The notes below the pieces were generated by a model. The model was given only the letters and a program-made list of their open reading frames with translations, ran no database searches and was not told where the DNA came from. Shown one piece after another: positions 9,134 to 62,098 of a stretch of 64,000 nucleotides of DNA (position 1 is its first letter; each line of letters starts with the position of its first letter). The position numbers and the translations under genes were made by a program. Origin of the DNA: an uncultured Peptococcaceae bacterium (GTDB taxonomy: Bacteria; Bacillota; Peptococcia; Peptococcales; Peptococcaceae); NCBI GenBank assembly GCA_910585405.1, contig CAJUDO010000012.1, positions 16,105 to 80,104 on the forward strand, in the 5' to 3' direction.

Positions 9134-9236
9134 TAAAAGCATCAAACCTACAGAAAAATTTTTGTATACAAATATTTTCTCATAAGATAAAATAGAAAAT
9201 ACAAATATCAAAAATAGAAAGTTCAGGTAGGTTGTT

Positions 9237-27081: not shown

Positions 27082-27085
27082 CGAG

Positions 27086-27122
27086 AACCTATGTCAAAAT
27101 AATAGTTGGCATAGGTTTTTTT
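27086..27122 (+). terminator. Intrinsic terminator
   Basis: AACCTATG-16 nt-CATAGGTT followed by T7. Confidence 0.65.
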
Positions 27123-27336
27123 ATGGACTTTTAATAACAATTAAGGTATGAAAAAAAAGAATAGGTGACAGGGGGAATACATGAATAATAAGAATTTCAC
27201 ACTTAGAGAAAAGAATGATAAACTAAATTTATCGTTAACGAGAATTTATGAAAAAAGAGGAGGAAGATAGAACTTTAAAAATTTACAAAATGAAATTTGC
27301 ACACAATAATCATAATTTGCGTTAGGAGTGAATTTT

Positions 27337-28722: not shown

Positions 28723-28750
28723 TGGTGGGAAAAAACAAGGAGGAATTATT

Positions 28751-31231
28751 ATGGAATGTTGTGTTAAAAAGTTAACTTTAACTCCACAAGAACATTGGCA
28801 TTTAAATGGAGTATATCCAGAGATGCAAGAACGGCAGAGAGCATTTCGTATTTATGAGAAAATTAGAAATTGTCCTGTTACAGTAGATATGTATCGTGCA
28901 CGGCTATTTACAGAATCATTTAAGTTGACAGAGGGGCAACCGCTTCATTGGCGATGGGCACAAGCATTAATGCATATTGCGGAAAATATGCCAATTGTAA
29001 TAGATGAAGATGATGTTATCGTGGGAAAAATGACAGGCAAAATGGGACGTTATGCGGTAGTTTATCCTGAATTGGAAGGCCCGACATTATTGGATTTAGA
29101 AAATGCATATGATAGACCATCAAGTCCGGTGAAAATTTCGAGCGAGGACTTGAAAATACTAAAAGAAGAAATCTATCCTTATTGGAAAGATCGAAGTTTT
29201 GCTCAAGATTTTGCAGGAAATCTGCCAGAGGAAACAAGAAGACTGTTATATGGTGATGATCCTAAAAATTTTAGTCCTATGAGTTCTATGATAGGGCAAA
29301 CGGCGACGACAAGATCTACATTAAATTTTAATTTTAATTATGAGTATTTACTTAATCGTGGTATAGCAGCGTTACGTAAGGAATCGGAAATGCATATAAC
29401 AAAAATAGAAAGCGAACCAGCGTTAATTGCCGAAAAAAAATCATTTGTAGATGCCGCACTTTTAACTTGGGATGCATTTAGTTTATTTATAGAGCGGTAT
29501 GGTTTGGAAGCTGAGCGTTTGATAGGGACTGAAAGAAGGGAAACACGCAAGGAAGAATTAAAGGAAATTGTTGATTGTTGTTTATGGATTGCGCATAATG
29601 CTCCAAGAACTTTTAAAGAAGCACTACAATTACAGTGGTTCGTTGTAGTTTTTGCATGTCTAGAGCAGAAAATAGGAGCAGCTTTAGGTAATGGACGCAC
29701 AGATCAACATTTGTATCCATTTTATAAAAATGATATAGAAAATGGCAGATTGACACGTGAAGAGGCAAAACGTTTATTTGAGTATTACTGGTTAAATATG
29801 GCTCAGAATCCGATGGTGCCATTGACCAATTCTGCATCTAAGTCGTTTGAAGCATATGCACATTTCGAAACCGTTACGATTGGTGGAGTTGATAAAAATG
29901 GTAATGATGCAACAAATGAGTTATCTTATGTTATTTTAGAATCTAAAAGAGGCTTTCCGATTCCATATCCAGATTTAGCGGCTAGAATTCATTCTGGAAC
30001 ACCAGATAAATTTTTAAAAGCTTGCTGTGAGGTTATTAAAGATGGGCAAGGATTTCCTAAGTTGTTAAATGATGAAGAAATTGTTCCGTTATATGTTGCT
30101 AAAGGTGCAACGTTAGCGGATGCCTATAATTATGCTTGTTCTGGTTGTACAGAAGTTCGTATTTTTGATAAGGAGACGTATATTACGGGTGGAGGATCTG
30201 TTAATTTAGGTGCCATCATTGAAACGGCATTACACAACGGGCGGATGAAAGTAAAAGGAGAGAAACCAATTGGCGTAGAGACAGGAGACCCTAAAGATTT
30301 TGATAGTTTTGAAAAATTTTATAATGCGATAAATATACAAATGAAGTATGCTTTGAAAAACTTAATTATTCAACAAGTAGTTGCAGAAAAGGTAAAGGCG
30401 AAAAAATTAGCTGCTCCGTTTTGTTCCGTTATGACGAAAGCTTGTAGAGAGCAAGATATTGATATTCACCAATATGTACCAAACAGTTTTAGAACAGCAA
30501 ATATAAATCTAATTGGATATGCTACCTACATCAATTCAGTAGTGGCAATAAAAAAATTAGTATTTGAAGATAAGAAATATACAATGGCAGAGATTCTTGA
30601 AGGAATAGATGCAAATTTTGATGGGTATGAAGTTATGCGACAAGAATTATTACACGCTCCAAAATATGGAAATAATGATAATTATGCCGATTCAGTGGGA
30701 TTAGCCTTAGATAGAGAGGTACAAGAATATTTGGCACAGCATAGGGGTGCTTATGGAGAAATTTTCGAAACAAGAGTAATTCCTATTACTGGACATATCT
30801 CTTATGGTTGGCTAGTACAAGCGACACCAGATGGGAGATTGGCAGGTACGCCTCTTTCGGAAGGCACTGCTGGATCCGCTGGCACAGAAAATAACGGCCC
30901 AACAGCGATTTTACTTTCAAATAAAAAAGTAAAAAATGAAGGGTATGCAGAACGCGCAGCAAGATTATTAAATATTAAATTTAGTCCAAGTGTTGTAGCA
31001 GGAGATGAAGGAACGAGACGTCTGATGTCATTTATTCGTACGTGGTGTGACCTAAAGTTATGGCATGTACAATTTAACATTGTGAATAAAGAGACAATGT
31101 TAAAAGCACAAAAAGATCCAGAGAATTATAAAGATTTAATTGTACGTGTAGCTGGATATAGTGCTTACTTTACAGAGATGACAAAAAAATTGCAGGATGA
31201 AATTATTGAACGTGCAGAATTTGATGTGTAA
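28751..31231 (+). CDS. Glycyl-radical enzyme, PFL2/eliminase (dehydratase/lyase) class
   Basis: C-terminal glycyl-radical motif LIVRVAGYS (Gly codon 31154-31156). Cys loop CSGCTEV with the Cys-x-Glu pair (Cys codon 30146-30148). About 826 aa. AAGGAGG RBS before the ATG at 28751. Confidence 0.9.
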   Translation: MECCVKKLTLTPQEHWHLNGVYPEMQERQRAFRIYEKIRNCPVTVDMYRARLFTESFKLTEGQPLHWRWAQALMHIAENMPIVIDEDDVIVGKMTGKMGRYAVVYPELEGPTLLDLENAYDRPSSPVKISSEDLKILKEEIYPYWKDRSFAQDFAGNLPEETRRLLYGDDPKNFSPMSSMIGQTATTRSTLNFNFNYEYLLNRGIAALRKESEMHITKIESEPALIAEKKSFVDAALLTWDAFSLFIERYGLEAERLIGTERRETRKEELKEIVDCCLWIAHNAPRTFKEALQLQWFVVVFACLEQKIGAALGNGRTDQHLYPFYKNDIENGRLTREEAKRLFEYYWLNMAQNPMVPLTNSASKSFEAYAHFETVTIGGVDKNGNDATNELSYVILESKRGFPIPYPDLAARIHSGTPDKFLKACCEVIKDGQGFPKLLNDEEIVPLYVAKGATLADAYNYACSGCTEVRIFDKETYITGGGSVNLGAIIETALHNGRMKVKGEKPIGVETGDPKDFDSFEKFYNAINIQMKYALKNLIIQQVVAEKVKAKKLAAPFCSVMTKACREQDIDIHQYVPNSFRTANINLIGYATYINSVVAIKKLVFEDKKYTMAEILEGIDANFDGYEVMRQELLHAPKYGNNDNYADSVGLALDREVQEYLAQHRGAYGEIFETRVIPITGHISYGWLVQATPDGRLAGTPLSEGTAGSAGTENNGPTAILLSNKKVKNEGYAERAARLLNIKFSPSVVAGDEGTRRLMSFIRTWCDLKLWHVQFNIVNKETMLKAQKDPENYKDLIVRVAGYSAYFTEMTKKLQDEIIERAEFDV

Positions 31232-31250
31232 AAATGAATGAGGTGTTTAT

Positions 31251-32075
31251 ATGGGAAAACTGGATGGAAAAATAGCGCTTGTGACTGGAGGCAGTCAAGG
31301 GTTAGGAAAAGGAATTGTTGAAGCTTTTTTGTTAGAAGGAGCGAAGGTTGCTTTTTGTGGGAGAAATATGGAAAAGTTAAAAAAGGTTGAAGCACATTTT
31401 AAGACTTTAGGCGATGTCTATGCGATACAATGTGATGTCAGCGATAGTTCAGACGTAAAAAAAATGTTTGCTCAAATAGCTGCACATTACGGAACCTTGG
31501 ATATATTAGTTAATAATGCAGGAAAAACTGGAGGAAGAAATTTACCAAATAATGACAGAGAAAATTATTTTAAGTTGAAAGAGAATGGATGTGAAAAATT
31601 TTCCTTAGAAATTACAAAAAACATGACTGATAGGGAATGGGATGAAAGCGTCAAAATTAATTTATATGGAACGTTTTATTGCACTAGGGAAGCCTTAAAA
31701 ATTATGGAGCAAAAAAAATATGGAAAAATTATAAATGTAGTTTCTACAGGCGGAATTGATAATACTAGCCCACATTCTCCAAACTATGTTGCAGCAAAAG
31801 GTGGAGTAGTAGCATTTACGAAAAATCTAGCAGTGGAAGTTATCGGTGCAGGTGTAATTGTAAATGCCATTGCTCCAGGCGCTATTATGTCAGAGGGGTA
31901 TGATAGGGTCTTAGCATCAGCTGGTGATGACTTTAAAAATAGGTTGTTGAAAGCAATTCCGGCTGGAAGGTTAGGAACTGTGCAAGAACATGCTTCTTTA
32001 GTTGTGTATTTAGCTAGCGATGAAGCAAATTATATTGTAGGGCAAATAATAGCTGCTAATGGTGGGGTATGTTAG
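31251..32075 (+). CDS. SDR-family NAD(P)-dependent oxidoreductase with an atypical insertion
   Basis: TGGSQGLG cofactor motif, NNAG, catalytic YVAAK. About 24 extra residues between NNAG and the following helix. Confidence 0.85.
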   Translation: MGKLDGKIALVTGGSQGLGKGIVEAFLLEGAKVAFCGRNMEKLKKVEAHFKTLGDVYAIQCDVSDSSDVKKMFAQIAAHYGTLDILVNNAGKTGGRNLPNNDRENYFKLKENGCEKFSLEITKNMTDREWDESVKINLYGTFYCTREALKIMEQKKYGKIINVVSTGGIDNTSPHSPNYVAAKGGVVAFTKNLAVEVIGAGVIVNAIAPGAIMSEGYDRVLASAGDDFKNRLLKAIPAGRLGTVQEHASLVVYLASDEANYIVGQIIAANGGVC

Positions 32076-50355: not shown

Positions 50356-51015
50356 TTAAATAATTTCGGATAAGAAATTTTTAAGGGGTAATAGTTTATT
50401 GCTATTCCAGTTAAAAGCGCCTGCTTTAGCGGCTTCGCCAATTTTTAAGGAAACATATTCATCCGTAACAGAAAAATAGGTATGCAGTTTTGTCTTAAAT
50501 TCATGCGGATAGGATCGATTATATTTATTTTCCAAGTTATTCATAAAACCTCGTATTTCATATAAAATATTGGAACTATTTTCTTCAGACAAGATAGATA
50601 GACAAAGATCTTCTAATGTTCCAACTTGAACAAATGTATCGCATGTTGGAAATAGTAAATAACCTACTTTAGGAACATGGCCATACCAACAATGAGGAGT
50701 ATCTGGAATTGCAAGATTACAATTTCGTAACGTTGATTTAATATCAGCTATAGCTTTCTTAGAATCTCTTTCGGCATCTCGAATGATTAACAATGATTCA
50801 ACTCGATCAAAACCTTCCATATTCTGTAATGTGCGAATGAAATTAGTTAGGTCTGTTATTCCGCCAAAATCCATAACCTGAAAATCGTTAGAGAATGCAG
50901 ATACATTGGAAAGTGCATCGCTGTTTAGGTAAGTGATGAGTACTTCTTCCGCATCACGCCCTTCACATAAAATAAGGTGTTTCTTTCTGATACTGTTGTT
51001 TGTTTTGCGTGCCAT
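50356..51015 (-). CDS. Toprim-like small protein (DUF4435/DUF3226/RloB class), partner of the ATPase
   Basis: ILCEGRDAE (Toprim-like Glu) and LLIIRDAERD (acidic cluster). Start abuts the ATPase stop (TAAATG). Confidence 0.55.
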   Translation of the reverse strand: MARKTNNSIRKKHLILCEGRDAEEVLITYLNSDALSNVSAFSNDFQVMDFGGITDLTNFIRTLQNMEGFDRVESLLIIRDAERDSKKAIADIKSTLRNCNLAIPDTPHCWYGHVPKVGYLLFPTCDTFVQVGTLEDLCLSILSEENSSNILYEIRGFMNNLENKYNRSYPHEFKTKLHTYFSVTDEYVSLKIGEAAKAGAFNWNSNKLLPLKNFLSEII

Positions 51016-52086
51016 TTACCGAACCTCCATACTGAAATTAATGGCGGAACGCACTAAATCGCCAGAATATCTGAAAGCTTTATTTTCTCCATCTGCCCGC
51101 TCGATTCGATAATAGCAAAACGCATTCTGCATATTTGCCGTTTCAATGCCATCAATCGCTCCATTTATACATTCATAACTGTGAGTAGTTGCTATAATTT
51201 GACAATTATTTTTCTGCGCAACAATAGAAATAATTTCCCACAATTTAGCATACATAGAAAAATGAAAACCAGTTTCAATTTCATCAATTAGGATTACTGA
51301 ATTTGGGTTTGCAATAATAGACAGAACAATGAATAGCAGTTTGTTAATGCCATCACCAGCCAGCTTGAGCGGCAATAACTTTTCCCCCATTTTTGCATAA
51401 AGCTGAATTTGACCTTGAAACGCAATTGTTGATATATCACATATAGATGCATCAATAATTCTTAATACATCAATTACCTGTTGTTTTTTGCCTTCTATTT
51501 CCAATTTACCAAACCACTCGGTAATTACACTATCATTATTTATAATTGAAGCGTTAATATATTGCGTAAACGGCATAGGAAGCAGTTGGTTATTGTCACT
51601 ACTGGTATGAACATTTCGCAACACACCAGAAGAACTTACAACAAAATGACCATCTTCGGTGTAATCACCATGTGAGAAATGAAACTTCAATGTATATGTT
51701 GACTTAGCTGAAGAAATAAATTGATTGAAAACATCTTGGGGAGCGCCAGCAGCATCAGATGGGACAAAAGAATCGTCTCGGGAGTATGTCAGAACTGTTT
51801 CCACATCGTCTAGTTGCATAGAAATACGCAATGTTTCTTTCGTATTCAAATCATAAAACATTGGTGCCCATAGGACAGATGGATCCGTAGACATAGATAA
51901 TCCGCGAAATCTATTGATTTTTACAAAAGACTCTGGCGCAATATGATCAATTGCCAGGAAGATTCCTTCCAAAATCGAGCTCTTACCTGCATTATTTTTT
52001 CCAGATATTAGAGTAACTTGACCAAGTTCTGGAAGATGAATTTTTTTTAATCCACGAAAGTTTTCAAAAGTTAGATTGTTAATCAT
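51016..52086 (-). CDS. ABC/SMC-fold AAA ATPase (AAA_21/AAA_15-like)
   Basis: MINNLTFENFRG...GKNNAGKSS Walker A, Walker B VILIDEIETGFH, H-loop ATTHS. AGGAGG RBS before the ATG at 52086. Confidence 0.8.
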   Translation of the reverse strand: MINNLTFENFRGLKKIHLPELGQVTLISGKNNAGKSSILEGIFLAIDHIAPESFVKINRFRGLSMSTDPSVLWAPMFYDLNTKETLRISMQLDDVETVLTYSRDDSFVPSDAAGAPQDVFNQFISSAKSTYTLKFHFSHGDYTEDGHFVVSSSGVLRNVHTSSDNNQLLPMPFTQYINASIINNDSVITEWFGKLEIEGKKQQVIDVLRIIDASICDISTIAFQGQIQLYAKMGEKLLPLKLAGDGINKLLFIVLSIIANPNSVILIDEIETGFHFSMYAKLWEIISIVAQKNNCQIIATTHSYECINGAIDGIETANMQNAFCYYRIERADGENKAFRYSGDLVRSAINFSMEVR

Positions 52087-52344
52087 GGGATAGCCTCCTA
52101 AATCACGATTATTGAAAACATTTTTATTATACCCTATATAAAAAGAAATTACCAGAAAAAACTGTAAACGACAGGGAAAAGAGTAGGAAGTAAACATTGT
52201 GGCTTCTCCAGCCTTATTGGAAACATTGATGTTATATATTCGAGAAAGGCTAAATCGGAATTGTGAAATAGGCGTCCGGGAGAAGAGAAACAGGCATCTC
52301 TCGGACTTTGGCATTGTTCCGATAAAAATATTATTCTGATTCCG

Positions 52345-52759: not shown

Positions 52760-52811
52760 AAATGCACATATATAGTGATATTCATTCAAATATCACTATA
52801 TATGTGCATTT
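52760..52811. repeat. Perfect 21-bp inverted repeat with a 10-nt loop
   Basis: AAATGCACATATATAGTGATA (52760-80) and TATCACTATATATGTGCATTT (52791-811), nested inside a 16-bp outer inverted repeat (52721-36 / 52824-39). Confidence 0.85.
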
Positions 52812-52879: not shown

Positions 52880-53347
52880 GTGACAGGTGCTTCATCGCAA
52901 ACACCGCCAAAGTGTGGGAACAGTGCGGTCATCCGTATGGACAGCTATGAGGACAAGAATCCTCAAGGCACCCTTTATCTGCTCCACACCCAGGAAGAGA
53001 TTGCCTTTACCAATCTGTTTGAACTGTTAGAGCAGTTGGACCGTTTAGCGCAGTGCAGCGAGAGCAGGGCATCCTGCAATCCAGGCATGCAGCGGGTCGT
53101 TACAGGAAAACGAGAGGATGTTGCCTTGCGGTCGACGCCGGAGATACAGGGCGACATTGCAACATTTCAGATAAAAATATTTTTCTGTGCCAATGCCACC
53201 TGGCAGGGCAGCCTGGGCTGGAAAGAGGGCAAACAGAAGCTGCGTTTTCGCAGCGCGTTGGAATTTGTAAAGTTATTGGACAGCGCGTTACCCCAACCGC
53301 CGCTGCAAAAAGGCGAATTGTGCTGTGAAGCGGCTCATGCAGGATAA
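52880..53347 (+). CDS. Hypothetical 155-aa cytoplasmic protein, first gene of the SipW cluster
   Basis: GTG start with a GGAGGTG RBS. No signal peptide. C-terminal block ATFQIKIFFCANATWQGSLGW...FRSALEFVKLLDSAL. Confidence 0.55.
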   Translation: MTGASSQTPPKCGNSAVIRMDSYEDKNPQGTLYLLHTQEEIAFTNLFELLEQLDRLAQCSESRASCNPGMQRVVTGKREDVALRSTPEIQGDIATFQIKIFFCANATWQGSLGWKEGKQKLRFRSALEFVKLLDSALPQPPLQKGELCCEAAHAG

Positions 53348-53373
53348 ACGTGCTGGGCAATCGATAAAATTTT

Positions 53374-53943
53374 ATGGATACTGTGAAGAAAATTTGGAAT
53401 AGCGCCACAACAGTGCTGGTGGCAGTCGTGGTCATCCTGGCCCTATTGCTGGCAGGACCGCGACTGATGGGCATGCAGGTATTTACCGTGTTGTCAGGCT
53501 CCATGGAGCCGGTGTATCACACCGGGTCGCTTATCTATGTGCGGGACGTGGACCCCATGGAGATCGAGCTGGGACAGGTGATTACTTTTATGCTGGATGA
53601 GGACACTGTGGCCACCCATCGGGTGGTGGAAGTGGTACCCGATGAGACAGACCATTCCGTGGTGCGGTTTCGCACCAAAGGGGACGCCAACGACGCCGAG
53701 GACGGCGGCTTGGTGCATTGCAACAATGTGCTGGGTACGCCGGTGTTCACCATTCCCCAGCTGGGCTATCTGGCCAATTATATTCAGAAGCCGCCGGGCA
53801 TGTACCTGGCCATCTCCGCCGGAGCGCTGCTTTTGATGCTGGTGTTCCTGCCCGATTTGTTCGGCAGCGACGAACCGGAAGAAAAGAAGAAGCGCAGGAA
53901 AAACAAGGGGAAAAGGGCGGAGAAACCACAACAGGAGGAATAA
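53374..53943 (+). CDS. sipW: SipW-type (ER/archaeal-type) signal peptidase I
   Basis: N-terminal TM, catalytic LSGSMEP, ATHRVV, KGDANDAEDG. C-terminal TM and a K/R/E-rich tail. Confidence 0.85.
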   Translation: MDTVKKIWNSATTVLVAVVVILALLLAGPRLMGMQVFTVLSGSMEPVYHTGSLIYVRDVDPMEIELGQVITFMLDEDTVATHRVVEVVPDETDHSVVRFRTKGDANDAEDGGLVHCNNVLGTPVFTIPQLGYLANYIQKPPGMYLAISAGALLLMLVFLPDLFGSDEPEEKKKRRKNKGKRAEKPQQEE

Positions 53944-53995
53944 GCCGCAAGGCTTCCTAAAATATGAAATTTAATTTTATTTAGAGGGGGATTTT

Positions 53996-54595
53996 ATGAT
54001 GAAATCTGTAAAGAAAGCAATCGTTGCCGCTTTATGTGCCGGCACACTAGTAGTAGGTTCCGTAGCAGGAACCATGGCGTATTTGACAAGCGAGGATAAA
54101 GTAGAGAACACATTTACAGTGGGAAATGTGGCTATTACATTGGACGAAACCGATGTAGATAACAGCACACAAGACAGCGAGCGTGACCGAGCAAATACTT
54201 ATAAATTGATGCCAGGCCACACCTATATCAAAGACCCAATTGTTCATGTAGATAAAGATAGTGAAGATTGCTATTTGTTTGTGAAAGTAGATAATGAAAT
54301 TACCGCTATTGAAGGTGACACTACTGTTGCTGTTCAGATGGCTGCAAAGGATTGGGTAGCTGTTGATGGTGTAGACGACATCTATGTTTATAGTACAGGT
54401 GATACTCCTACTGCTGTTACTGCTGATGAGAATAAGATCGTATTTGAAAACTTCACAATCGCTGGAACAGTAGATAACGATAAATTAGCAAATTATGCAA
54501 ATAAAACAATTATAGTAACTGCTTATGCAATTCAGGCTAATGGCTTTGAAGGTAAAACTGCTTCCGAAATCTGGAACGCAGCTAACTTTAAATAA
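53996..54595 (+). CDS. TasA/BsaA/camelysin-like subunit with SipW-cognate signal peptide (1)
   Basis: N-terminus KKAIVAALCAGTLVVGSVAGTMAYLTSED...NTFTVGNV. Shares MPGHT..KDP..V...SEDCYLFVKV with its paralogues. Confidence 0.8.
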   Translation: MMKSVKKAIVAALCAGTLVVGSVAGTMAYLTSEDKVENTFTVGNVAITLDETDVDNSTQDSERDRANTYKLMPGHTYIKDPIVHVDKDSEDCYLFVKVDNEITAIEGDTTVAVQMAAKDWVAVDGVDDIYVYSTGDTPTAVTADENKIVFENFTIAGTVDNDKLANYANKTIIVTAYAIQANGFEGKTASEIWNAANFK

Positions 54596-54645
54596 TCGCA
54601 ATCTTCTAACGATTTAGCTCATTTCGCGAGAAAGGAGGAAATTGC

Positions 54646-55230
54646 GTGAAAACGATGAAAAAAACGATTGCCTTGCTGGTGGCAGTATCCATGATTGTCG
54701 GCTGTGCCATCGGCGGCACGCTGGCGTGGCTGACCCATTCAACTGGTCCTGTGACGAATACCTTTACGACCAGTGATATTGAGGTAACATTGGAAGAAAC
54801 AACGGGCGATACGTACAAGATGATTCCTGGCTATACCATTACAAAAGACCCGAAGGTGACTGTGACCACTGGCTCTGAGGAATGCTATTTGTTCGTTAAA
54901 ATGGAAAAGTCTAATAATTTTGATATTTTTATGACTTATGAGATAGCAGAAGGTTGGACTGCCTTGAATGGTATTGCTGGTGTGTATTATCGTGTGATTA
55001 AAACTGCAGATATGGACAGACCGCACAACATTTTGAAGGATGATCAGGTTGCTGTCGAGGATACTGTCACAAAAGCCATGATGGATGGCTTGACGAGTGA
55101 AACCTATCCGACCTTGACTGTTACTGCATATGCATCACAATTGTACAAGAATAATACGGAAACATTCGCCGCAACAGAGGCATGGGAAAATGTTCCGGCT
55201 AATTCGAGTACACAAACAGACGGAGAGTAA
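54646..55230 (+). CDS. TasA/BsaA/camelysin-like subunit with SipW-cognate signal peptide (2)
   Basis: GGTLAWLTHST..NTFTTSD, MIPGYTITKDPKVTV..SEECYLFVKM. GTG start with a GGAGG RBS. Confidence 0.8.
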   Translation: MKTMKKTIALLVAVSMIVGCAIGGTLAWLTHSTGPVTNTFTTSDIEVTLEETTGDTYKMIPGYTITKDPKVTVTTGSEECYLFVKMEKSNNFDIFMTYEIAEGWTALNGIAGVYYRVIKTADMDRPHNILKDDQVAVEDTVTKAMMDGLTSETYPTLTVTAYASQLYKNNTETFAATEAWENVPANSSTQTDGE

Positions 55231-55278
55231 CGCTTAAATAAAAAAACTCAGATAAAAATTAATAAGGAGAGATTGATT

Positions 55279-56016
55279 ATGAAAAAGAAATTGGTAACTG
55301 GCGCATTAATTGCAGCCTTTGGCGCAGTAGCCATCACCGGCGGTACCTTAGCTTATTTTACAGATACCGATGCAAAAACAAATACCTTTACCGTTGGGAA
55401 TGTTGCTATCGACTTAATTGAAAATTTTGGAGATAACGATCCAACTACACCAGAAAAATTGTTGCCTGCTACCGGTTCTGCACAAGCTGGTACTTTGCAG
55501 AATGGCATCACCAAAGAAGTTAGTGTAAAAAACACAGGTTCTGAAGATGCTTATGTTCGTGTACACATTGCAATTCCTAGTATGTTAGACAATGGAAATC
55601 CAGAGTTTGATGCAGGGAAAAATGCTTTGCATTTCAACTATACAAATGATTCTATTGGAGCAGGCAAATGGGACTGGTCTACGACAGCAGGAGCACCGTA
55701 CCAAGGTAATTGGAACTATTATGAAACAACGATTGATGAAATTGGCTATAATGTATACGTTGTAACTTATGGTACAGCTTTGAAACAAGGAGAAGAAACT
55801 CAAGAAAAAGCTATGCATCAAGTTTATTTAGACAAGAATACATCTAATGAAGCAATTAACTCCTATGTAGAAACTTTAGGAGAAAACTGGCAGATTAAAG
55901 TGCTGGCAGAAGGTGTACAGGCAGCTGGTTTTGATGATGCTTATACAGCATTAAATACTGCTTTTGGTGTACCTGGTGAGTATACTGTTGACTGGAGTGG
56001 AGCTACTGCACAGTAA
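55279..56016 (+). CDS. TasA/BsaA/camelysin-like subunit with SipW-cognate signal peptide (3)
   Basis: GGTLAYFTDTDAKTNTFTVGNV. SEDAYVRVHI block. Confidence 0.8.
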   Translation: MKKKLVTGALIAAFGAVAITGGTLAYFTDTDAKTNTFTVGNVAIDLIENFGDNDPTTPEKLLPATGSAQAGTLQNGITKEVSVKNTGSEDAYVRVHIAIPSMLDNGNPEFDAGKNALHFNYTNDSIGAGKWDWSTTAGAPYQGNWNYYETTIDEIGYNVYVVTYGTALKQGEETQEKAMHQVYLDKNTSNEAINSYVETLGENWQIKVLAEGVQAAGFDDAYTALNTAFGVPGEYTVDWSGATAQ

Positions 56017-56175
56017 TTTCCCCAATTAATTTATTTCTACGCTCTGCCCGATTTGGGCAGGGTGTAGAAGAGCACCTGAAGGGGCGCGGATGTTCTTCTG
56101 CACCCTGCACTATGCGGGGGCGGCTAAAAATGTTTCAAAAAGAGAGAAGATAGCATAAAAGGAGGATGAGGGAAC

Positions 56176-56724
56176 ATGATAAAAAAGAGACTGTTCAGTC
56201 TGGCGGTCATCGTGATCTGCCTGTCCATTGCGGGCGCGGGTACGTTGGCCTATTTCAGCGACCGGACGGTAGCCCACAATGTCATCACCTCCGGCAACAT
56301 CAAGATTGATTTGCTGGAAACCAAAGCCGACGGCAGCACCTTTGAGAATGTGATTGGCGTGATGCCCGGCACATCGGTGGAAAAGGTGGTACAGGTAAAA
56401 AATATTGGGGACAATGATGCCTGGATTCGTGTGCGGGTGGACAAAGAACTCACCAAAGCAAACGGGCAAGCCGGTGATGCGGATCTGCTGGGGATTAATT
56501 TTGATTCCCGGAACTGGATTGCACAGGACGGCTACTACTATTACGATAAGACCTTGAAATCCGGGGACGTGACAGAACCGTTGTTTGAAAGTGTGCAATT
56601 TAATGCATCTATGGGAAACGACTATCAGAATAGCACGGCCCAGGTGTACGTATTTGCGCAGGCAACCCAGACGGCCAACAACGGAGAAGCCGTACTGGAA
56701 GCCAATGGCTGGCCGGAAGACTGA
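56176..56724 (+). CDS. TasA/BsaA/camelysin-like subunit with SipW-cognate signal peptide (4)
   Basis: AGTLAYFSDRT, MPGTSVEKVVQVKNIGDNDAWIRVRV. Confidence 0.8.
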   Translation: MIKKRLFSLAVIVICLSIAGAGTLAYFSDRTVAHNVITSGNIKIDLLETKADGSTFENVIGVMPGTSVEKVVQVKNIGDNDAWIRVRVDKELTKANGQAGDADLLGINFDSRNWIAQDGYYYYDKTLKSGDVTEPLFESVQFNASMGNDYQNSTAQVYVFAQATQTANNGEAVLEANGWPED

Positions 56725-56756
56725 GCCGATAGACCAATAGAGGAGGATGACAGAAC

Positions 56757-57470
56757 ATGAAAGGTATATTAGGAAAGAATAAATGGATTGCAGTACTGCT
56801 GTGCATTACGATGCTGTTGTGTATCTCTCCGCTGAGTCCCCTTGTTGCCTTTGGGGAAGACGGTGACGCTGGAGTTTCCGACAGTGTAGAAGATGGCGCT
56901 GGGGATGCATCCACAGAGGATGGCAGCATTGCCGGTGACGACGGAGAAGAAACTTCCGACGGTGAGGAAACGACAGAAGGTACCGGCGATGGCACAGAAG
57001 AAACTCCCGACGGAGCAGAGAACCAACCTGCTGACGGCGAACAGCAGGAAGGTACAGAAGGCAATCAGCCCGCCGATGGGGAACAGGAAGAAGAAATTGC
57101 CGATGAAAATGTACCCAAAACCGAAGTTCCGGCAGTATCTGGACATATGGACGGCTGCTCCGACGAATGTACCGGTGAAGGATGCACTTGTCCTTGCCAT
57201 TTGTATCAGCGTTTGATGGCGTGTGAAACCTTTGAAGAATTGATGATGCTCATCGAAGCCACACCTGAGGAAGCATTGCTGGCACTGACTGAGGATGAAG
57301 TGATGCAGATTGAGGCGAAAATTGCCGAATTGGAGCCGGAACCGCTGCCCCCGGTGGTGGAGGAAGATTCTGATATTATGACAACGGATGAACCGGTGGA
57401 GAGCGAGATTATTTATCCCACAGTAAATTTCACCAATGTAGCGCCCTTTGGTGATCCGGTTGTCGGATAA
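56757..57470 (+). CDS. Secreted, highly acidic low-complexity protein with a Cys-rich motif
   Basis: Sec signal peptide ...LVAFG-ED. D/E/G/T-rich with tandem GNQPADGEQ. CSDECTGEGCTCPCH. Confidence 0.7.
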   Translation: MKGILGKNKWIAVLLCITMLLCISPLSPLVAFGEDGDAGVSDSVEDGAGDASTEDGSIAGDDGEETSDGEETTEGTGDGTEETPDGAENQPADGEQQEGTEGNQPADGEQEEEIADENVPKTEVPAVSGHMDGCSDECTGEGCTCPCHLYQRLMACETFEELMMLIEATPEEALLALTEDEVMQIEAKIAELEPEPLPPVVEEDSDIMTTDEPVESEIIYPTVNFTNVAPFGDPVVG

Positions 57471-57485
57471 GGAAGGAGGCAGAGT

Positions 57486-60437
57486 ATGAAAAAAACAAAA
57501 ATCATTTCCCTGCTTCTCTCTGTATCTATGTTGGTGTCTGTTGCGATACCAGGTACGCTGGCACAACCAGAAGAAAACCCAGGGACAGAGGGACTGGAAA
57601 TCAGTAAAACCGCCACGGAAAATAAGGACGGAACCTACACCATTCAGTTGGAAGCCTATGCCACCGGAGATAAAATCATCACCGAGGCGAAAGCAGATGT
57701 TCCTACGGACATTGTTCTGGTATTGGATCAGTCCGGCTCTATGGAAGAGGATATGTCTACCTATTCCTTCTCAGCGTATGAAAATCGAGACAATAGCTAT
57801 CTGTATGGACAGCGACACAATCGTCAGAGAAATAAGAACCTCTACTATAAGCTGGAGGATGGCAGCTATGTCGAGGTTTATGTGACCAGAACAGAAGGAG
57901 AAGGAAATATTACTTATACACAATGTCCGGCTGATTGGCCGAATGATTCCTATTTTTCTTCTCAAGATAATTACTTTACGCATAGCAGCAATCTCTATGT
58001 GAAAAGTGGTGATAGTTGGCAGAAAGTAACTTTAGAGAGAAAAGAGAGTGGTTCCTTCTGGGAACGTAAATACCAATACATTTATACATTTCCAGATGGA
58101 TCTACTGTAGTCAGTGAGAACCGAGACGGTCTCCCTGGTTTTGGTGAAAAAGGGCCGCTGTATTATGTTACCCAGGGAAGAGGCGACTATGAGTATACTT
58201 ATACTTACCGAGTAAATGGACGAGATGTAACGATTGGGACATCTACCGGTCAGGATACGGTTCCGGAGTTTACCTTGTATGAGAGAAGTGAAGGTGGGAG
58301 CGTCTCTCGTTTGTCTGCTTTGCGAACCGCTGTAACCAACTTTGCCGATAGCGTTGCGGAAAAAGCAAAAGGTAAGGATGGACAGCTCGGAACTGATGAC
58401 GATGTAAACCACCGGATTGCTGTGGTGGGATTTGCAAGCAAATCTGGTTACGGTAACAATACGGAGCTTCTTTCCATTAGCGGCAGTAATAGCGGCAACG
58501 TAGGCGTTAAATATGGCAGTATCAGCCAGCAGAACTATAAGGATGTTTTGCAGAGCATGACTACCCAGGCCGGTCGGAATATGGTCAATAGCGCCATCAA
58601 TGCGCTGGCCACTGAAGGCGCTACCGAGGCGAATCTGGGTATGGAAATGGCGAACGGCATTTTGGATGCAAACCCAGTGCCTACTGGCGAAAAGCGCAAC
58701 CGTGTTGTGATCCTGTTTACTGATGGCTCACCGACTACCTTCAATGGATTTAGTGAGAATGTTGCGAATAGTGCGATTGCTGAGGCGGATACCGCCAGAG
58801 CAAAAGGCGCAAATGTTTACTCTGTTGGTATCTTTGAAGGAGCAGATGCGAGCTCTGCTGGTAGTCTGAGCGGCGATGACACGCAGAAGGCAAACTGGTT
58901 CATGCAGAATGTGTCCGACAACAAGGGCACACCCCAGAACCCCAGCTACTACCTCTCCGCTGCGGACGCGGATTCCCTGAACGATATTTTCCAGCAGATC
59001 AGCGATAACATCGAAACTGGTGGTTCTTCCACCACGCTGGATGAAAATGCAATCATCAAGGATATCATTGCTCCCTCTTTCCAGCTCCCGAAGGGCGCAA
59101 CCGTGAATGATATCAAGCTGGAAACCTACAGCTACACCGGTGAGAATCAGTGGCAAGCGAACAACGATACTATGGGCGCTACAGCCACCGTGGAGGATGA
59201 CAAGGTCGATGTGACTGGCTTTGACTTTGCGGAGAACTGGTGCGGTAAGGAAACCACAAACGGTATGGAAAACTACCGTGGCAATAAGCTGGTGATCAGC
59301 TTCAAGGTCGAGCCTAAGCCTGGCTTCCTCGGCGGCAACGGTGTCTATACCAATACCAACGCCGGGGTCTATGAGAATGGTCAGGCAAGTGACCCGCTCT
59401 TTACCTTCAATCGTCCCCAGGTGGATGTGGAGATCAAGGAAATCAACGTCACTGCGCAGGATAAGAACGTCTACCTTATGGGCGACCTGACCGCTGAGCA
59501 GATCAAGTCCGGCGCAATTGCCAACGTTGGCGACGTGGAGCTGAAACTTGGCGAGACAAACTACGGTCTGCAAGACTGGCAGCACGAGTATGTGGAAATC
59601 TCTGTCGATTATCAAGATAAAAATGGCAATACACTTAACAATTTGGAGAATCTGATAGCTGACACTACTTACAGCGTCGTTGTTACTGTTAAACCTAAGG
59701 AAACAAAGGGTACGGCCGTCGAACAGACTGATAGCGATGATGGCAATATCAACGTCTTCAAGCCCGAGCTGACCTTTAAGGACGGCGAAGCATGGTATGG
59801 CGGCGATGTTCCTGCCGATACTGAGTTGAATACGAATTTAACCAAAACCGAATGGAAGCACGGAGAAACTGTTGCTGACACTACTAAGATGGGGGATGCT
59901 CCTGAGCTGACCCTGACCTACACCCTGGATGCGTCCAAGTTGAAGAATGGAAAAATCAACAGCAAAACGGCTGATATCCCTGTAGATGTCACAATAAAAT
60001 TTGGTGAGGGGGAAGTGACAGATCATACTGCTTTCCAGCATACAAACTGTGACGGAAAGACTTGTAAACTCCCGGAAAATAATGAGTTCCTCCTGCACAT
60101 CAATACCTGCCGGCTGACCATTACCAAAACCGGCGGCGCAGCGGACGAGCCGTATGTGTTCGACATCATGAAAGATAAGGAAAAGTATTCCGAAGTCACC
60201 ATTGTTGGAAACAACAGCGAAACCATTTACGAACTGCCGGTGGGCAGCTACGCTATCGCAGAGGATAAAGGCTGGAGCTGGCGTTATAATCCTACTTATA
60301 GCAATAATGGCGTGACTTTGAGCAAGGATCAAACTAGCGGAACCATAACCTGCACCAACAATAAGGAAAAAGATAAATGGCTCAACGGCTACAGTGATAT
60401 TGTGACAAATATCTTTGGCGAGCGCCATGACAATTGA
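57486..60437 (+). CDS. Secreted 983-aa von Willebrand factor A protein with an inserted arm and a C-terminal Ig/prealbumin-like domain
   Basis: Sec signal peptide. MIDAS VLVLDQSGSM, TEANLG, ILFTDGSPT. About 185-aa insertion after the MIDAS loop. C-terminal LTITKTGG...GWSWRY. No sorting signal. Confidence 0.85.
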   Translation: MKKTKIISLLLSVSMLVSVAIPGTLAQPEENPGTEGLEISKTATENKDGTYTIQLEAYATGDKIITEAKADVPTDIVLVLDQSGSMEEDMSTYSFSAYENRDNSYLYGQRHNRQRNKNLYYKLEDGSYVEVYVTRTEGEGNITYTQCPADWPNDSYFSSQDNYFTHSSNLYVKSGDSWQKVTLERKESGSFWERKYQYIYTFPDGSTVVSENRDGLPGFGEKGPLYYVTQGRGDYEYTYTYRVNGRDVTIGTSTGQDTVPEFTLYERSEGGSVSRLSALRTAVTNFADSVAEKAKGKDGQLGTDDDVNHRIAVVGFASKSGYGNNTELLSISGSNSGNVGVKYGSISQQNYKDVLQSMTTQAGRNMVNSAINALATEGATEANLGMEMANGILDANPVPTGEKRNRVVILFTDGSPTTFNGFSENVANSAIAEADTARAKGANVYSVGIFEGADASSAGSLSGDDTQKANWFMQNVSDNKGTPQNPSYYLSAADADSLNDIFQQISDNIETGGSSTTLDENAIIKDIIAPSFQLPKGATVNDIKLETYSYTGENQWQANNDTMGATATVEDDKVDVTGFDFAENWCGKETTNGMENYRGNKLVISFKVEPKPGFLGGNGVYTNTNAGVYENGQASDPLFTFNRPQVDVEIKEINVTAQDKNVYLMGDLTAEQIKSGAIANVGDVELKLGETNYGLQDWQHEYVEISVDYQDKNGNTLNNLENLIADTTYSVVVTVKPKETKGTAVEQTDSDDGNINVFKPELTFKDGEAWYGGDVPADTELNTNLTKTEWKHGETVADTTKMGDAPELTLTYTLDASKLKNGKINSKTADIPVDVTIKFGEGEVTDHTAFQHTNCDGKTCKLPENNEFLLHINTCRLTITKTGGAADEPYVFDIMKDKEKYSEVTIVGNNSETIYELPVGSYAIAEDKGWSWRYNPTYSNNGVTLSKDQTSGTITCTNNKEKDKWLNGYSDIVTNIFGERHDN

Positions 60438-60455
60438 GAGAGGAGGGGAAGATAG

Positions 60456-61031
60456 ATGGCTTATGGTAAGCATACAAAAAAGCAAAATGGCAAGAAGCTG
60501 AGCGGAAAAGCCGGAGCATTGCTGATTTCCCTCCTGCTGATTTTTACCGTGACGGTAAGTGGCACCATGGCATTTTTGGTGACAAATACAGGTGGTTTGA
60601 CGAATACCTTCACTCCTTCCCATGTGAGTTGTGGCGTGACGGAAAGTTTTGACGGCACGACCAAAAGCAATGTCAACGTGACCAACACCGGTGACATCGA
60701 CGCTTACATTCGGGTGAAGCTGGTTTCCTACCGTGTCAATGATGATGGTCAGCACATCGGCGGCATTGCCAGGGTGCCGGACTTCATGCCGGGAAACGGA
60801 TGGGTAAAAAAAGGTGATTACTACTATTATACCGCACCGGTAGCTTCCGGTGCGCAACCTAAGACAGGTTTGATTGATAGTATTGACTTGACAGATTCTT
60901 ATAGTGATCCCGATGGCGGTAAGCAGGTAATCGAAGTTATGGCGGAAGCCATTCAGGCTGAGGGCGTTGATGCCGATGGTATGAAAGCAGTTGTAAAAGC
61001 CTGGGGTGTAGACCCTGAAACACTTAGTTAA
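60456..61031 (+). CDS. TasA/BsaA/camelysin-like subunit with SipW-cognate signal peptide (5)
   Basis: SGTMAFLVTNTGGLTNTFT, NTGDIDAYIRVKL. Confidence 0.8.
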   Translation: MAYGKHTKKQNGKKLSGKAGALLISLLLIFTVTVSGTMAFLVTNTGGLTNTFTPSHVSCGVTESFDGTTKSNVNVTNTGDIDAYIRVKLVSYRVNDDGQHIGGIARVPDFMPGNGWVKKGDYYYYTAPVASGAQPKTGLIDSIDLTDSYSDPDGGKQVIEVMAEAIQAEGVDADGMKAVVKAWGVDPETLS

Positions 61032-61041
61032 GGAGTGAGCG

Positions 61042-61962
61042 ATGATGAAACAACAGAAGACAACAAACAAAGTGATCGCCCTCCTTTTGGCAGTGCTGCT
61101 GGTGCTGGGTACAGCGCCGGCGGCGCTGGCCGCTGACGGGGAGGCTGACGGCGATAAAACGGTGGGCATCATCTATCAAGGGCAGTCTGCCCTTGCGCGC
61201 TGGATATATCAGAATCCTGATACCACTTATACCGCGACCGATTTGTTTCCCCAGTTAAAGGGTGTGATGCCGGGCGATCGGCTGCAGCAGGACTTTATCG
61301 TCAAAAACAACAGCGCCAACGATATCCAGCTGTTTGTACAGCTGCTGCCTCACAATGGAGACAATCCGCTGAGCGACGGTGTGGACGCGCAAACTACCAC
61401 CGCTTCCTCTATCGCCTTTTTGAACCAGCTGGAAATGAAAATTACAGCCGGTGAGGGCCAACAGGAACAGACTTTATTTGAGATTCCCAAAGGAAAGCTG
61501 GGCGCTTATGCCGGGCAGAAGGAATTGGGCACGCTGAAAGCAAGGCAGGGCGCTGTGCTCCATGTGTATCTCACGGTGCCTATTGAGATGGGCAATGAGT
61601 TTATGTATCTGATGGAGCAGGCGCAGCAGGGTACAGCCGCTGGGATTGGTGAGTTGGATTTGGCCTTTACCATTCGGGAGGAAACGGGAGGCGGCGGCAG
61701 TGACCCAACGCCCAATCCGCCCGATGAGGAAATTGATGATCCCAATGTGCCGTTAGGACCGCCGGAGGAAGAAATCGACGATCCCGATGTGCCATTGGAC
61801 CCTGGTATTGAAATTCCGGGGACGCCGGTGGAGGAAATTCATGATCCCGAGGTGCCCTTGGCAGATGCGCCGAAGACCGGCGATACCAACAATATCTTAT
61901 TGATGCTGGTATTGTTGGCAGTGGGCGCAGGGGGTCTGCTGGTTGTGAGAAAGAAAAGCTAA
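61042..61962 (+). CDS. TasA-like-core surface protein with a Sec signal peptide and an LPXTG-type cell-wall sorting signal
   Basis: ALA-ADGE signal cleavage site. MPGDRLQQDFIVKNNSANDIQLFVQL block. Three EEI[DH]DP.VPL repeats. APKTGD plus a hydrophobic helix plus RKKS. Confidence 0.8.
   Translation: MMKQQKTTNKVIALLLAVLLVLGTAPAALAADGEADGDKTVGIIYQGQSALARWIYQNPDTTYTATDLFPQLKGVMPGDRLQQDFIVKNNSANDIQLFVQLLPHNGDNPLSDGVDAQTTTASSIAFLNQLEMKITAGEGQQEQTLFEIPKGKLGAYAGQKELGTLKARQGAVLHVYLTVPIEMGNEFMYLMEQAQQGTAAGIGELDLAFTIREETGGGGSDPTPNPPDEEIDDPNVPLGPPEEEIDDPDVPLDPGIEIPGTPVEEIHDPEVPLADAPKTGDTNNILLMLVLLAVGAGGLLVVRKKS
61717..61863 (+). repeat. Three tandem coding repeats (P-x-EEI-D/H-DP-x-VPL)
   Basis: PPDEEIDDPNVPLG / PPEEEIDDPDVPLD / TPVEEIHDPEVPLA, read directly from the translation. 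Confidence 0.8.
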
Positions 61963-62040
61963 AAAAGAAGATAGATAGAGGACGAAACGTGCCGCAAGTG
62001 ATCTACAAGATGCGTCGGCATGGTATATAAGCAAAAACAG

Positions 62041-62085
62041 AAGGCGAACCCCTACATCGTAAATTACGAGGTAGGGGTTCGCCTT
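62041..62085. terminator. Bidirectional terminator between convergent genes
   Basis: Perfect 15-bp stem AAGGCGAACCCCTAC / GTAGGGGTTCGCCTT with further inner pairing. T-rich on both sides. Confidence 0.75.
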
Positions 62086-62098
62086 TTAATTTCTATTT

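Follow-up and report, generated by a model that had tools for sequence, protein, structure and literature searches.

Results

Gene content of the locus

The subject of this analysis is a putative surface-fibre locus at positions 52880-61962 of a 64,000-nucleotide stretch of DNA (the window, that is, the whole stretch that was analysed) from an uncultured Peptococcaceae bacterium (GenBank assembly GCA_910585405.1, contig CAJUDO010000012.1). A first-pass annotation, made from the letters alone, had described ten co-directional genes here, and this description holds: all ten are open reading frames (ORFs) on the + strand with the limits given below, and the gaps between them measure, in order from P1 to P10, 26, 52, 50, 42, 159, 32, 15, 18 and 10 nt. 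In further support of that annotation, curated cutoffs were passed by SipW, T1, T3, T4, P8 and P10 when the ORFs were checked with hidden Markov models (HMMs). The features of the locus are as follows.

52760-52811, + strand: perfect hairpin with 20-bp arms and a U-run, at the 5' edge of the locus; candidate terminator, attenuator or operator
52880-53347, + strand: P1, 155 aa, no signal peptide, candidate regulator
53374-53943, + strand: SipW-type signal peptidase I (endoplasmic reticulum (ER)/archaeal type, Ser-His), TIGR02228
53996-54595, + strand: T1, TasA/BsaA-like subunit; signal GTMAYLT, donor strand V-E-N38-T-F, E51, K79
54646-55230, + strand: T2, TasA/BsaA-like subunit; signal GTLAWLT, donor strand V-T-N38-T-F, E51, K67
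55273-56016, + strand: T3, TasA/BsaA-like subunit of 247 aa, the longest of the five; N37, E50, K81
56176-56724, + strand: T4, the most BsaA-like subunit; N35, E48, K70
56757-57470, + strand: P7, secreted acidic protein with a Cys/His cluster
57486-60437, + strand: P8, 983-aa vWA protein; Sec-type signal, metal ion-dependent adhesion site (MIDAS), no sorting signal
60117-60365, + strand: last domain of P8 (residues 878-960), SpaA/DUF5979-like by the DUF5979 and DUF7601 models
60366-60434, + strand: C-terminal tail of P8 (residues 961-983), V-x-N-x-F, proposed donor strand
60456-61031, + strand: T5, TasA/BsaA-like subunit; long basic N-region, N50, E63, K70, no MPG loop
61042-61962, + strand: P10, anchor protein; AXA signal, TasA-related core, sorting signal
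62039-62095, + strand: intrinsic terminator hairpin (stem 62039-62087, then a U-run), end of the operon

For comparison we used six full reference loci from different lineages (the window, L013, L006, L009, L015/L016 and L018), together with 80 loci, mostly from the human gut, that were recovered from metagenomes by searching with the C-terminal module of P8, the big protein. The 80 metagenomic loci fall into 18 clusters at 90% identity of this module and 12 at 70%, and their ORFs were classed by HMMs built from the reference loci.

Five TasA/BsaA-like paralogues with a conserved Asn-Glu-Lys set

The SipW-cognate signal model TIGR04088 (cutoff 19) was passed by T1, T3 and T4 (28.2, 38.5 and 32.7 bits), and in T2 (GTLAWLT) and T5 (GTMAFLV) the motif was seen by eye only. 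With the Peptidase_M73/TasA model PF12389 (cutoff 22.5), T3 and T4 scored 32.9 and 31.7 bits, T1 stayed below the cutoff at 18.4 bits, and T2 and T5 gave no match; with the BsaA family model TIGR04090 (cutoff 60), T4 came to 56.1 bits, under the cutoff, and T2, T3 and T5 matched more weakly. T2 and T5 thus reach no curated cutoff, and their paralogy was seen by BLASTP (T2 against T1, E 1e-25; T5 against T4, E 8e-9). The first-pass annotation had read a SipW-cognate N-terminus followed by NTFT in the paralogues; the signals stood, but the second element fails in T4, which reads NVIT. Individual members are marked by features of their own, T5 lacking the MPG loop, T1 and T2 carrying KDP and T3 being larger. 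No LPXTG sorting signal or transmembrane segment was found at the C-terminus of T1-T5 or of P8. An identity of the paralogues as camelysin proteases was rejected, the name Peptidase_M73 being deemed a misidentification (PMC11580942).

Each paralogue has an N-terminal strand of the form V-x-N-x-F (A-x-N-x-I in T4). Its Asn and a Glu 13 residues further on are invariant in all 30 paralogues from six loci, and a Lys that follows the MPG loop is invariant in 24/24 of the T1-T4 proteins from these loci; in T5 the Lys lies one position earlier. In T4, N35, E48 and K70 are invariant in 53 orthologues. Among metagenomic paralogues, of which only those matched by a sequence pattern were counted, the Asn is present in 151/151 and the Glu in 150/151.

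These residues recall BsaA of Clostridium perfringens, which polymerises by donor-strand exchange combined with an intermolecular isopeptide bond, with V33-x-N35-x-F37 as the donor strand (PMC11580942). Mutation identified N35, E56 and K74 of BsaA as necessary for heat- and sodium dodecyl sulfate (SDS)-stable oligomers, and in BsaA models the N-terminal segment, without order in the monomer, enters the subunit that follows (PMC11580942). The correspondence of the paralogue Asn with the donor-strand Asn of BsaA is well supported, and we tentatively infer that the Glu and Lys are equivalent to E56 and K74. The first-pass annotation had assumed plain donor-strand exchange of the TasA kind; the Asn-Glu-Lys triad conserved in the paralogues suggests a BsaA-type covalent lock instead.

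The AlphaFold2 (AF2) monomer model of T4, from 53 orthologues, has a predicted local distance difference test score (pLDDT) of 85.3, with residues 24-39 disordered. In a Foldseek comparison its top template-modelling (TM) match was the TasA fibre (8aur_A; TMq 0.48, probability 1.00, E 1.6e-3), and the donor-strand pilins CfaB, CooA and Csu were also among the matches, beside other jelly rolls. The modelled fold is therefore consistent, although not exclusively, with a TasA-like beta-sandwich with a free N-terminal strand, and the earlier assignment of the paralogues to the TasA fold gains support from it. Sequence searches of the PDB with T4 and with a profile of the paralogues returned nothing useful, and the link to TasA in the PDB came only through fold comparison.

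The big protein P8 and its C-terminal tail

P8 scored 32.5 bits with the vWA model PF00092 (cutoff 23.8) and was also above the cutoff of PF13519. Its vWA domain has a large insertion and a MIDAS at D81-Q-S-G-S85 (D-x-S-x-S), and the protein also contains beta-rich stalk domains. Homologues number in the thousands, with 1,425 sequences in one 90%-identity cluster; a sequence search of the PDB with P8 gave nothing useful. The last domain ends at residue 960, where DUF5979 is matched over positions 2-102 of 104 and DUF7601 up to 116 of 116. It contains an invariant Lys (LTITK881), Glu/Asp (AE926D) and Asn (CTN958), which together are a candidate set for an intramolecular isopeptide bond.

The last 23 residues of P8, WLNGYSDIVTN975IFGERHDN, fall outside the domain models. 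The tail motif recurs in 108/120 close homologues and at 78/80 metagenomic loci, the Asn being kept in both of the misses, and its V-T-N-I-F matches the V-x-N-x-F pattern of the subunit donor strands. In L006 (3919-8991), an otherwise syntenic locus, a 1690-aa Listeria-Bacteroides (Flg_new) repeat protein replaces the vWA protein; because it ends in the same C-terminal domain and tail, the passenger domain appears exchangeable. We propose that the tail is a C-terminal donor strand and P8 a donor-only component, since the tail lies outside the domain, is conserved across passengers and follows the V-x-N-x-F pattern.

The tail might instead be the last beta-strand of P8's own CnaB/SpaA-like domain, joined within that domain by an isopeptide bond, in which case P8 would be attached otherwise or not at all. 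Pfam domain boundaries are approximate, which leaves room for such a strand, and we count in its favour a likeness between the tail and a CnaB-type isopeptide strand such as SpyTag (hydrophobic-V-x-N/D-x-aromatic). However, DUF5979 is matched nearly end to end and DUF7601 to its last position, and both stop 23 residues short of the C-terminus; further, the last domain already holds its invariant Lys, Glu/Asp and Asn (LTITK, AED and CTN). We consider this explanation possible but doubtful, and the proposal of a donor-only P8 is the one carried forward below.

The anchor protein P10 and locus-linked sortases

P10 consists of an AXA signal, a TasA-related core (residues ~41-215), a Pro/Asp/Glu-rich wall-spanning linker, the motif APKTGD, a transmembrane segment and the sequence RKKS. 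The sorting signal was recognised by TIGR01167 (23.7 bits, cutoff 15.9) and PF00746 (22.9 bits, cutoff 20), and no Pfam or NCBIfam model covers the N-terminal domain. Aligned with hhalign, the P10 family is related to the paralogues at 95.8% probability (E 7e-9). In the AF2 model the core has a pLDDT of 80-90 over residues 70-180, and Foldseek matched it to TasA (5of1_B, E 3e-4) and an archaeal bundling pilin (7ueg_A), among CUB-type jelly rolls.

A profile search with P10 retrieved 2,763 clusters (50% identity) at E <=1e-3 and 472 at 1e-30. The top 150 representatives of the family include 97 with xPxTG, 20 with xxTGD and 19 with L(I/L)xTGQ, giving a recognised class in 136/150, and each of these sorting motifs precedes a membrane segment and a basic tail; a SipW-type N-terminus occurs in only 1 of the 150. 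Long variants (median 417 aa) carry Cna_B stalk domains ahead of an LxxTGQ signal. In the hhalign alignment P10 has Gly at the donor Asn, no Glu at the Glu position, and Gln (62%) or Glu (35%) at the Lys, and the family has conserved residues of its own (TDLF, K73, D79, N89, N185 and D206). In lacking the triad the family resembles BsaB as described for C. perfringens, which has no triad and forms dimers at most (PMC11580942). Judged from these comparisons, P10 is a specialised non-polymerising TasA relative belonging to a separate large family. The first-pass annotation, which had counted P10 as a sixth TasA relative with a normal leader, was thus right as to the relationship but not as to membership in the paralogue set, the family being separate and without the Asn/Glu/Lys triad.

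No sortase was detected in the 64-kb window, either with Pfam on ORFs of at least 110 aa, with an HMM built from three locus-linked sortases, or by BLASTP. In relatives, a sortase gene lies directly downstream of 11/11 anchors of the LxxTGQ type vs 0/35 of the xPxTG type, to which that of the window belongs. The first-pass annotation had stressed the lack of a sortase; it holds for the window, but because LxxTGQ sister loci always have an adjacent sortase, it is a feature of the lineage. The lineage of the window presumably relies on a sortase gene at another place in its genome. The linked sortases of relatives pass only the generic model TIGR01076, and with the class C model they score 38-39 bits against a cutoff of 160.

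Sister loci with a sortase beside the anchor gene would suit an ordinary sortase-assembled Gram-positive pilus in which SipW plays a SipA-like accessory role, and so would P8, which resembles vWA tip adhesins and has a SpaA/DUF5979-like last domain. The general logic is also shared with sortase pili (SpaA type; RrgA, GBS104), namely a vWA tip adhesin, isopeptide-type stalk domains, several shaft subunits and a sortase-linked base. At this locus, however, P10 alone has a sorting signal, no sortase was detected in the window, those linked to the loci of relatives miss the class C cutoff, and the subunits are TasA-family proteins with SipW-cognate signals. In contrast to the shaft proteins of sortase pili, T1-T5 have neither sorting signals nor a pilin motif, their fold is TasA-like and not CnaA/CnaB, and their polymerisation is predicted to proceed by strand insertion and a spontaneous isopeptide bond instead of sortase transpeptidation. 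The combination that marks a sortase-pilus island, a sorting signal and pilin lysine in all pilins together with a class C sortase, was not found at the locus. Because the locus has a single sortase substrate, P10, we rejected this explanation, which we regard as extremely improbable.

SipW, P1 and P7

The signal peptidase passes the archaeal/ER-type signal peptidase I model TIGR02228 (94.7 bits, cutoff 51.85) and falls under the cutoff of the SipW equivalog NF046067 (119.8 bits against 190), so it is SipW-like and not an equivalog; among solved structures it is closest to human SEC11C/A (E 7.7e-12). From gene adjacency and the cognate signal motif, it is predicted to cleave the neighbouring TasA-like precursors.

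Neither P1 nor P7 matched any family in Pfam/NCBIfam-type HMM searches, even at E 10, and a PDB sequence search with P1 gave no match. Homologues of P1 occupy the same position in L013 (95.5% identity) and L006 (36%), and in L009 and L015 the slot is held by a TetR regulator; because of the latter, P1 is a candidate regulator. P7 was detected in only part of the lineages with an HMM built from the reference loci. Its conserved parts are a helix and the C-terminal IIYPTVNF(T/D)(N/D)VAPFG, and ahead of the helix stand variable Cys/His-rich repeats (CxxCxxxxCxCxCH here, HTH..C in L015 at 8915-9982), which may bind metal. P7 is possibly an accessory or chaperone-like factor.

Conservation of the gene set and mosaic divergence

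Every locus that spans SipW to the anchor gene has the same order: SipW, three or four T genes, in some cases P7, the big protein, T5, P10 and in some cases a sortase. The number of TasA-like genes between SipW and the big protein is four at 43/48 loci and three at four. T5 lies immediately 3' of the big protein at 76/76 loci with enough sequence, and a P10-like gene is present at 60/61 loci with room for one, the exception (L029) being rearranged. A scan of genome contigs with a tighter P10 alignment found four distant loci only. The cluster, with this order at the six full loci and at every metagenomic locus covered from SipW to the anchor, is thus conserved as a unit, as the first-pass annotation had implied. 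Mean identity across loci is 52% within an orthogroup vs 26% between orthogroups, and the five paralogues are old, distinct orthogroups, kept in a fixed order across lineages. Two reduced loci (L011 and L012) retain only a T4-like gene beside a P10-like gene.

Close relatives differ in a patterned way. The segment 53996-61031 of the window and its counterpart in L013 (6322-13648) lie between flanks of 97.5% identical DNA. Protein identity between the two loci is 91-97% for P1, SipW, T4, P7 and P10, and it is 70% for T1, 65% for T2, 46% for T3, 62.5% for P8 and 78% for T5. Averaged over 262 pairs of loci that share at least 95% identity in SipW, identities come to 98% for T4, 97% for SipW and 96% for P10, and 90, 85, 83 and 87% for T1, T2, T3 and the big protein, respectively; T3 is the most variable subunit between close relatives. 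The mosaic of the window and L013 suggests allelic replacement of exposed fibre parts within what is apparently one species, and more generally the exposed parts appear to be exchanged between strains and the base and assembly parts kept. Because T4 is conserved between strains and stands beside the anchor gene in the reduced loci, it may serve as a base adaptor or as a subunit of the shaft.

This divergence can also be read as a sign that the five paralogues are alternative or antigenically variable subunits that form homopolymers, or a stochastic mix, on one anchor. T1-T3 and P8 are indeed 46-70% identical between relatives whose flanks are 97.5% identical, and TasA and CalY of Bacillus cereus co-assemble with no strict order known (PMC13082335). 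On the other side, the subunits form ancient, distinct orthogroups that keep the same order in nearly all lineages, and each has distinctive features (MPG loop, KDP, size) of the kind typical of specialised, non-redundant pilus subunits. We consider such interchangeable subunits unlikely, and in what follows the paralogues are treated as parts of an ordered heteropolymer.

Variants of the locus were also observed. The most widespread version, with a 984-aa vWA protein, is represented by L015 (1-22955) and L016. It is flanked by relaxase and integrase genes on one side and by serine recombinase and toxin-antitoxin genes on the other, and an IS110 transposase gene is inserted between T1 and T2; the L015-type copy is probably carried on an integrative mobile element, to judge from these neighbours. 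L010 (358-1992 and 6322-11397) has an alternative design in which a SipW-type signal and a TasA-like N-domain form the N-terminus of giant proteins (544 and 1691 aa), and the 1691-aa protein appears, by eye only, to carry a Hint-like segment at its end.

Context of the locus in the window

The hairpin at the 5' edge (dG -30 kcal/mol, z -11.7) lies ~70 nt 5' of P1, inside the 97.5%-identical block common to the window and L013, and no second copy of it was found in the window. The terminator stem at 62039-62087 (dG -36.5 kcal/mol, z -10.2) is followed by UUUUAAUUU, and the whole element stands between P10 and a convergent KilA-N gene. Promoter-like sites at the locus were not enriched over shuffles, and we claim no promoter.

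The rest of the window is housekeeping chromosome (MurJ, Lon, GuaA, LeuS, RNase J, HflX, Ddl, RecA, RecX and SbcCD) with an Agr-like module, and given these surroundings a mobile-element origin of the window copy was rejected. Pfam scans of ORFs of at least 110 aa found no type IV pilus genes in the window. The Agr-like quorum-sensing pair at 270-2179 encodes a GHKL histidine kinase (440 aa) and AgrB (196 aa). A block of low G+C content (32-36%) at 26170-32075 holds a LysR regulator, a Na/sulfate-type symporter, a glycyl-radical enzyme (PFL-like, 840 aa) and a short-chain dehydrogenase. On the - strand at 50356-52314, between sbcCD and the fibre locus, lie an AAA_15/AAA_21 ATPase (432 aa) and a DUF3226 protein (219 aa); the G+C content of this pair is ~35% vs ~50% around it, the pair is also present in L013, and the module looks like a small defence-type island.

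Discussion

We favour, as probable, the reading that this operon builds a heteropolymeric fibre of the SipW-dependent TasA/BsaA class, anchored to the cell wall. A heteromeric SipW-dependent fibre of TasA-fold proteins with a vWA protein and a wall-anchored relative was also what the first-pass annotation had envisaged, and the conserved unit, the TasA-like models and the restriction of the sorting signal to P10 speak for it.

Assembly would follow the model proposed for BsaA, in which the fibre grows from its base: the freed strand of one subunit enters a newly exported, tethered subunit, and SipW then cleaves. By analogy, the subunits here would be exported by Sec and remain tethered by their uncleaved signal peptides, the freed N-terminal strand of the previous subunit would enter the groove of the next, an Asn-Lys isopeptide bond catalysed by the Glu would lock the junction, and SipW would then cleave, so that the fibre would grow from the base. 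The remaining steps are more speculative. P8 might be incorporated first through its C-terminal V-x-N975-x-F tail and sit at the distal tip; T5, of intermediate divergence, might by its gene position serve as the tip adaptor; the fast-diverging T1-T3 might form the exposed shaft; and the strain-conserved T4 might dock onto P10, an acceptor-type terminator whose APKTGD would be linked to peptidoglycan by a sortase encoded elsewhere. P7 and P1 might act as accessory or regulatory factors. Because a fibre of the BsaA model grows from the base, a donor-only P8 is placed distally and an acceptor-only P10 proximally; the latter placement fits the C-terminal wall anchor and the wall-spanning linker or Cna_B stalk of P10, and the patterns of sequence divergence agree with such a layout of tip, shaft and base.

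Several points weigh against this reading. We infer donor-strand insertion, the isopeptide bond and the subunit order alike by analogy. The distance from Asn to Glu is 21 residues in BsaA vs 13 in the paralogues here, and because of this difference the assignment of the catalytic Glu is uncertain. The Foldseek E-values are marginal (~1e-3), and other jelly-roll folds score alike. A covalent acceptor should have the Lys and the Glu, and P10 has neither; in the P10 model, moreover, its own N-terminal strand may fill its groove in cis. The window yielded no sortase for APKTGD. Finally, the BsaA oligomers of C. perfringens strain HN13 are membrane-anchored and not wall-anchored (PMC11580942).

The last of these points leads to the view that the paralogues form released or membrane-tethered biofilm-matrix fibres, like TasA or the BsaA of C. 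perfringens strain 13, with P8 and P10 as independent surface or secreted proteins that have only the operon in common with them. Results from C. perfringens favour it: the HN13 oligomers are released by SDS and not linked to the wall, the vWA protein BsaC was recovered as a free secreted protein, and BsaB has no covalent link to BsaA oligomers (PMC11580942); the first two of these tell against a wall-anchored, adhesin-bearing fibre, and the missing Asn/Glu/Lys triad of P10 likewise suits a matrix. Against independence, however, P10 is itself a TasA relative that lies 3' of the big protein at 60/61 loci, T5 follows the big protein at 76/76, and the reduced loci retain a T4-like gene with a P10-like gene. 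Further, the tail of the big protein and its invariant Asn are kept whatever the passenger domain, and strain 13 has apparently lost LPXTG-BsaB through rearrangement. We consider a matrix fibre with unconnected P8 and P10 quite improbable, and return to the anchored heteropolymer.

The closest known system is the bsa operon of C. perfringens, sipW-bsaA-bsaB-bsaC, in which BsaC is a vWA protein (PMC11580942, a 2025 preprint). Most strains encode an LPXTG-bearing BsaB with an adjacent srtB, from which its authors speculate that the fibre is anchored, and they had already noted operons in which several paralogues are accompanied by LPxTG, SpaA-domain, signal peptidase and sortase genes (PMC11580942). 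The premise of the first-pass annotation, that SipW pairs with one or very few subunits, was therefore incomplete, and a wall-anchored, adhesin-carrying design is already foreshadowed for C. perfringens. Set beside the published description, all four elements of bsa-type gene content (sipW, a polymerising subunit, an LPXTG TasA-like protein and a vWA protein) are present here, and the two systems have in common a SipW-type peptidase, TasA-like subunits with SipW signals, a vWA protein, the V-x-N-x-F strand and, putatively, the Asn-Glu-Lys lock. Unlike bsa, with one polymerising subunit and BsaB, the present locus has five fixed orthogroups; its P8 has 983 aa and a conserved C-terminal Asn tail, whereas BsaC is of ~70 kDa; and it has the additional P7 and P1, a triad-less anchor family and, in the lineage of the window, no adjacent sortase.

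The systems of Bacillus are more distant. The tapA-sipW-tasA system of Bacillus subtilis likewise combines SipW-dependent export, a jelly-roll subunit, an N-terminal donor strand and a nucleating or anchoring accessory protein (PDB 8AUR, PMC9674648, PMC10151520). In contrast to the present locus, B. subtilis has one major subunit, TasA, with no isopeptide triad (PMC11580942), no sortase substrate and no adhesin; homology between TapA and P10 was not found by any test here. The sipW-tasA-calY genes of B. cereus with CapP are comparable in their two-paralogue heterofilaments and a wall-localised, chaperone-like factor, but that system is sortase-independent by description, has two paralogues only and lacks a vWA protein (PMC13082335). 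Similarity between P7 and CapP was not detected, no direct comparison of the two having been made.

Farther afield, chaperone-usher pili (Fim, Pap, CFA/I) are also ordered heteropolymers of paralogues with N-terminal donor strands, a non-donating tip and a terminator. The present system differs in having neither chaperone nor usher and no outer membrane; its structural match to their subunits is marginal, and those pili lack the covalent lock proposed here. Archaeal threads and bundling pili show donor-strand complementation in TasA-like subunits (PMC9715654; PMC9245690, PDB 7UEG), and for threads the resemblance extends to isopeptide bonds between subunits and to a setting with an ER-type signal peptidase; unlike the fibre proposed here, they are homopolymers with no sortase anchoring and no adhesin.

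What is new here is the triad in five orthogroups, the triad-less anchor family, the rule that ties anchor motif to sortase, the candidate donor strand of the adhesin and the mosaic of exposed parts. A speculative remark in the preprint (PMC11580942) is thereby turned into a defined gene set with testable residue-level predictions. As far as the surveyed loci go, this locus type is widespread among human-gut Clostridia as a fixed set of genes.

How gut Firmicutes adhere to mucus, to food particles, to host cells and to one another is determined by their surface fibres. To our knowledge, Gram-positive pili have so far been essentially either sortase pili or type IV pili. We suggest, tentatively and with more doubt than confidence, that the locus represents a third Gram-positive pilus class, abundant in human-gut Clostridia: an ordered five-subunit TasA-fold heteropolymer in which every junction would be strand-inserted and Asn-Lys-locked, an exchangeable adhesin (vWA or Flg_new) would be mounted on a C-terminal donor strand, a triad-less terminator would be fixed by sortase, and the exposed parts would be recombined between strains. 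If the fibre model holds, the locus would unite three mechanisms that usually occur apart, namely gating by an ER-type signal peptidase, polymerisation through donor strands like that of chaperone-usher pili, and isopeptide locks with a sortase anchor like those of Gram-positive pili; it would also explain the roles of the C. perfringens vWA protein BsaC and LPXTG-BsaB and would provide a source of natural, orthogonal strand-plus-isopeptide coupling modules similar to SpyTag.

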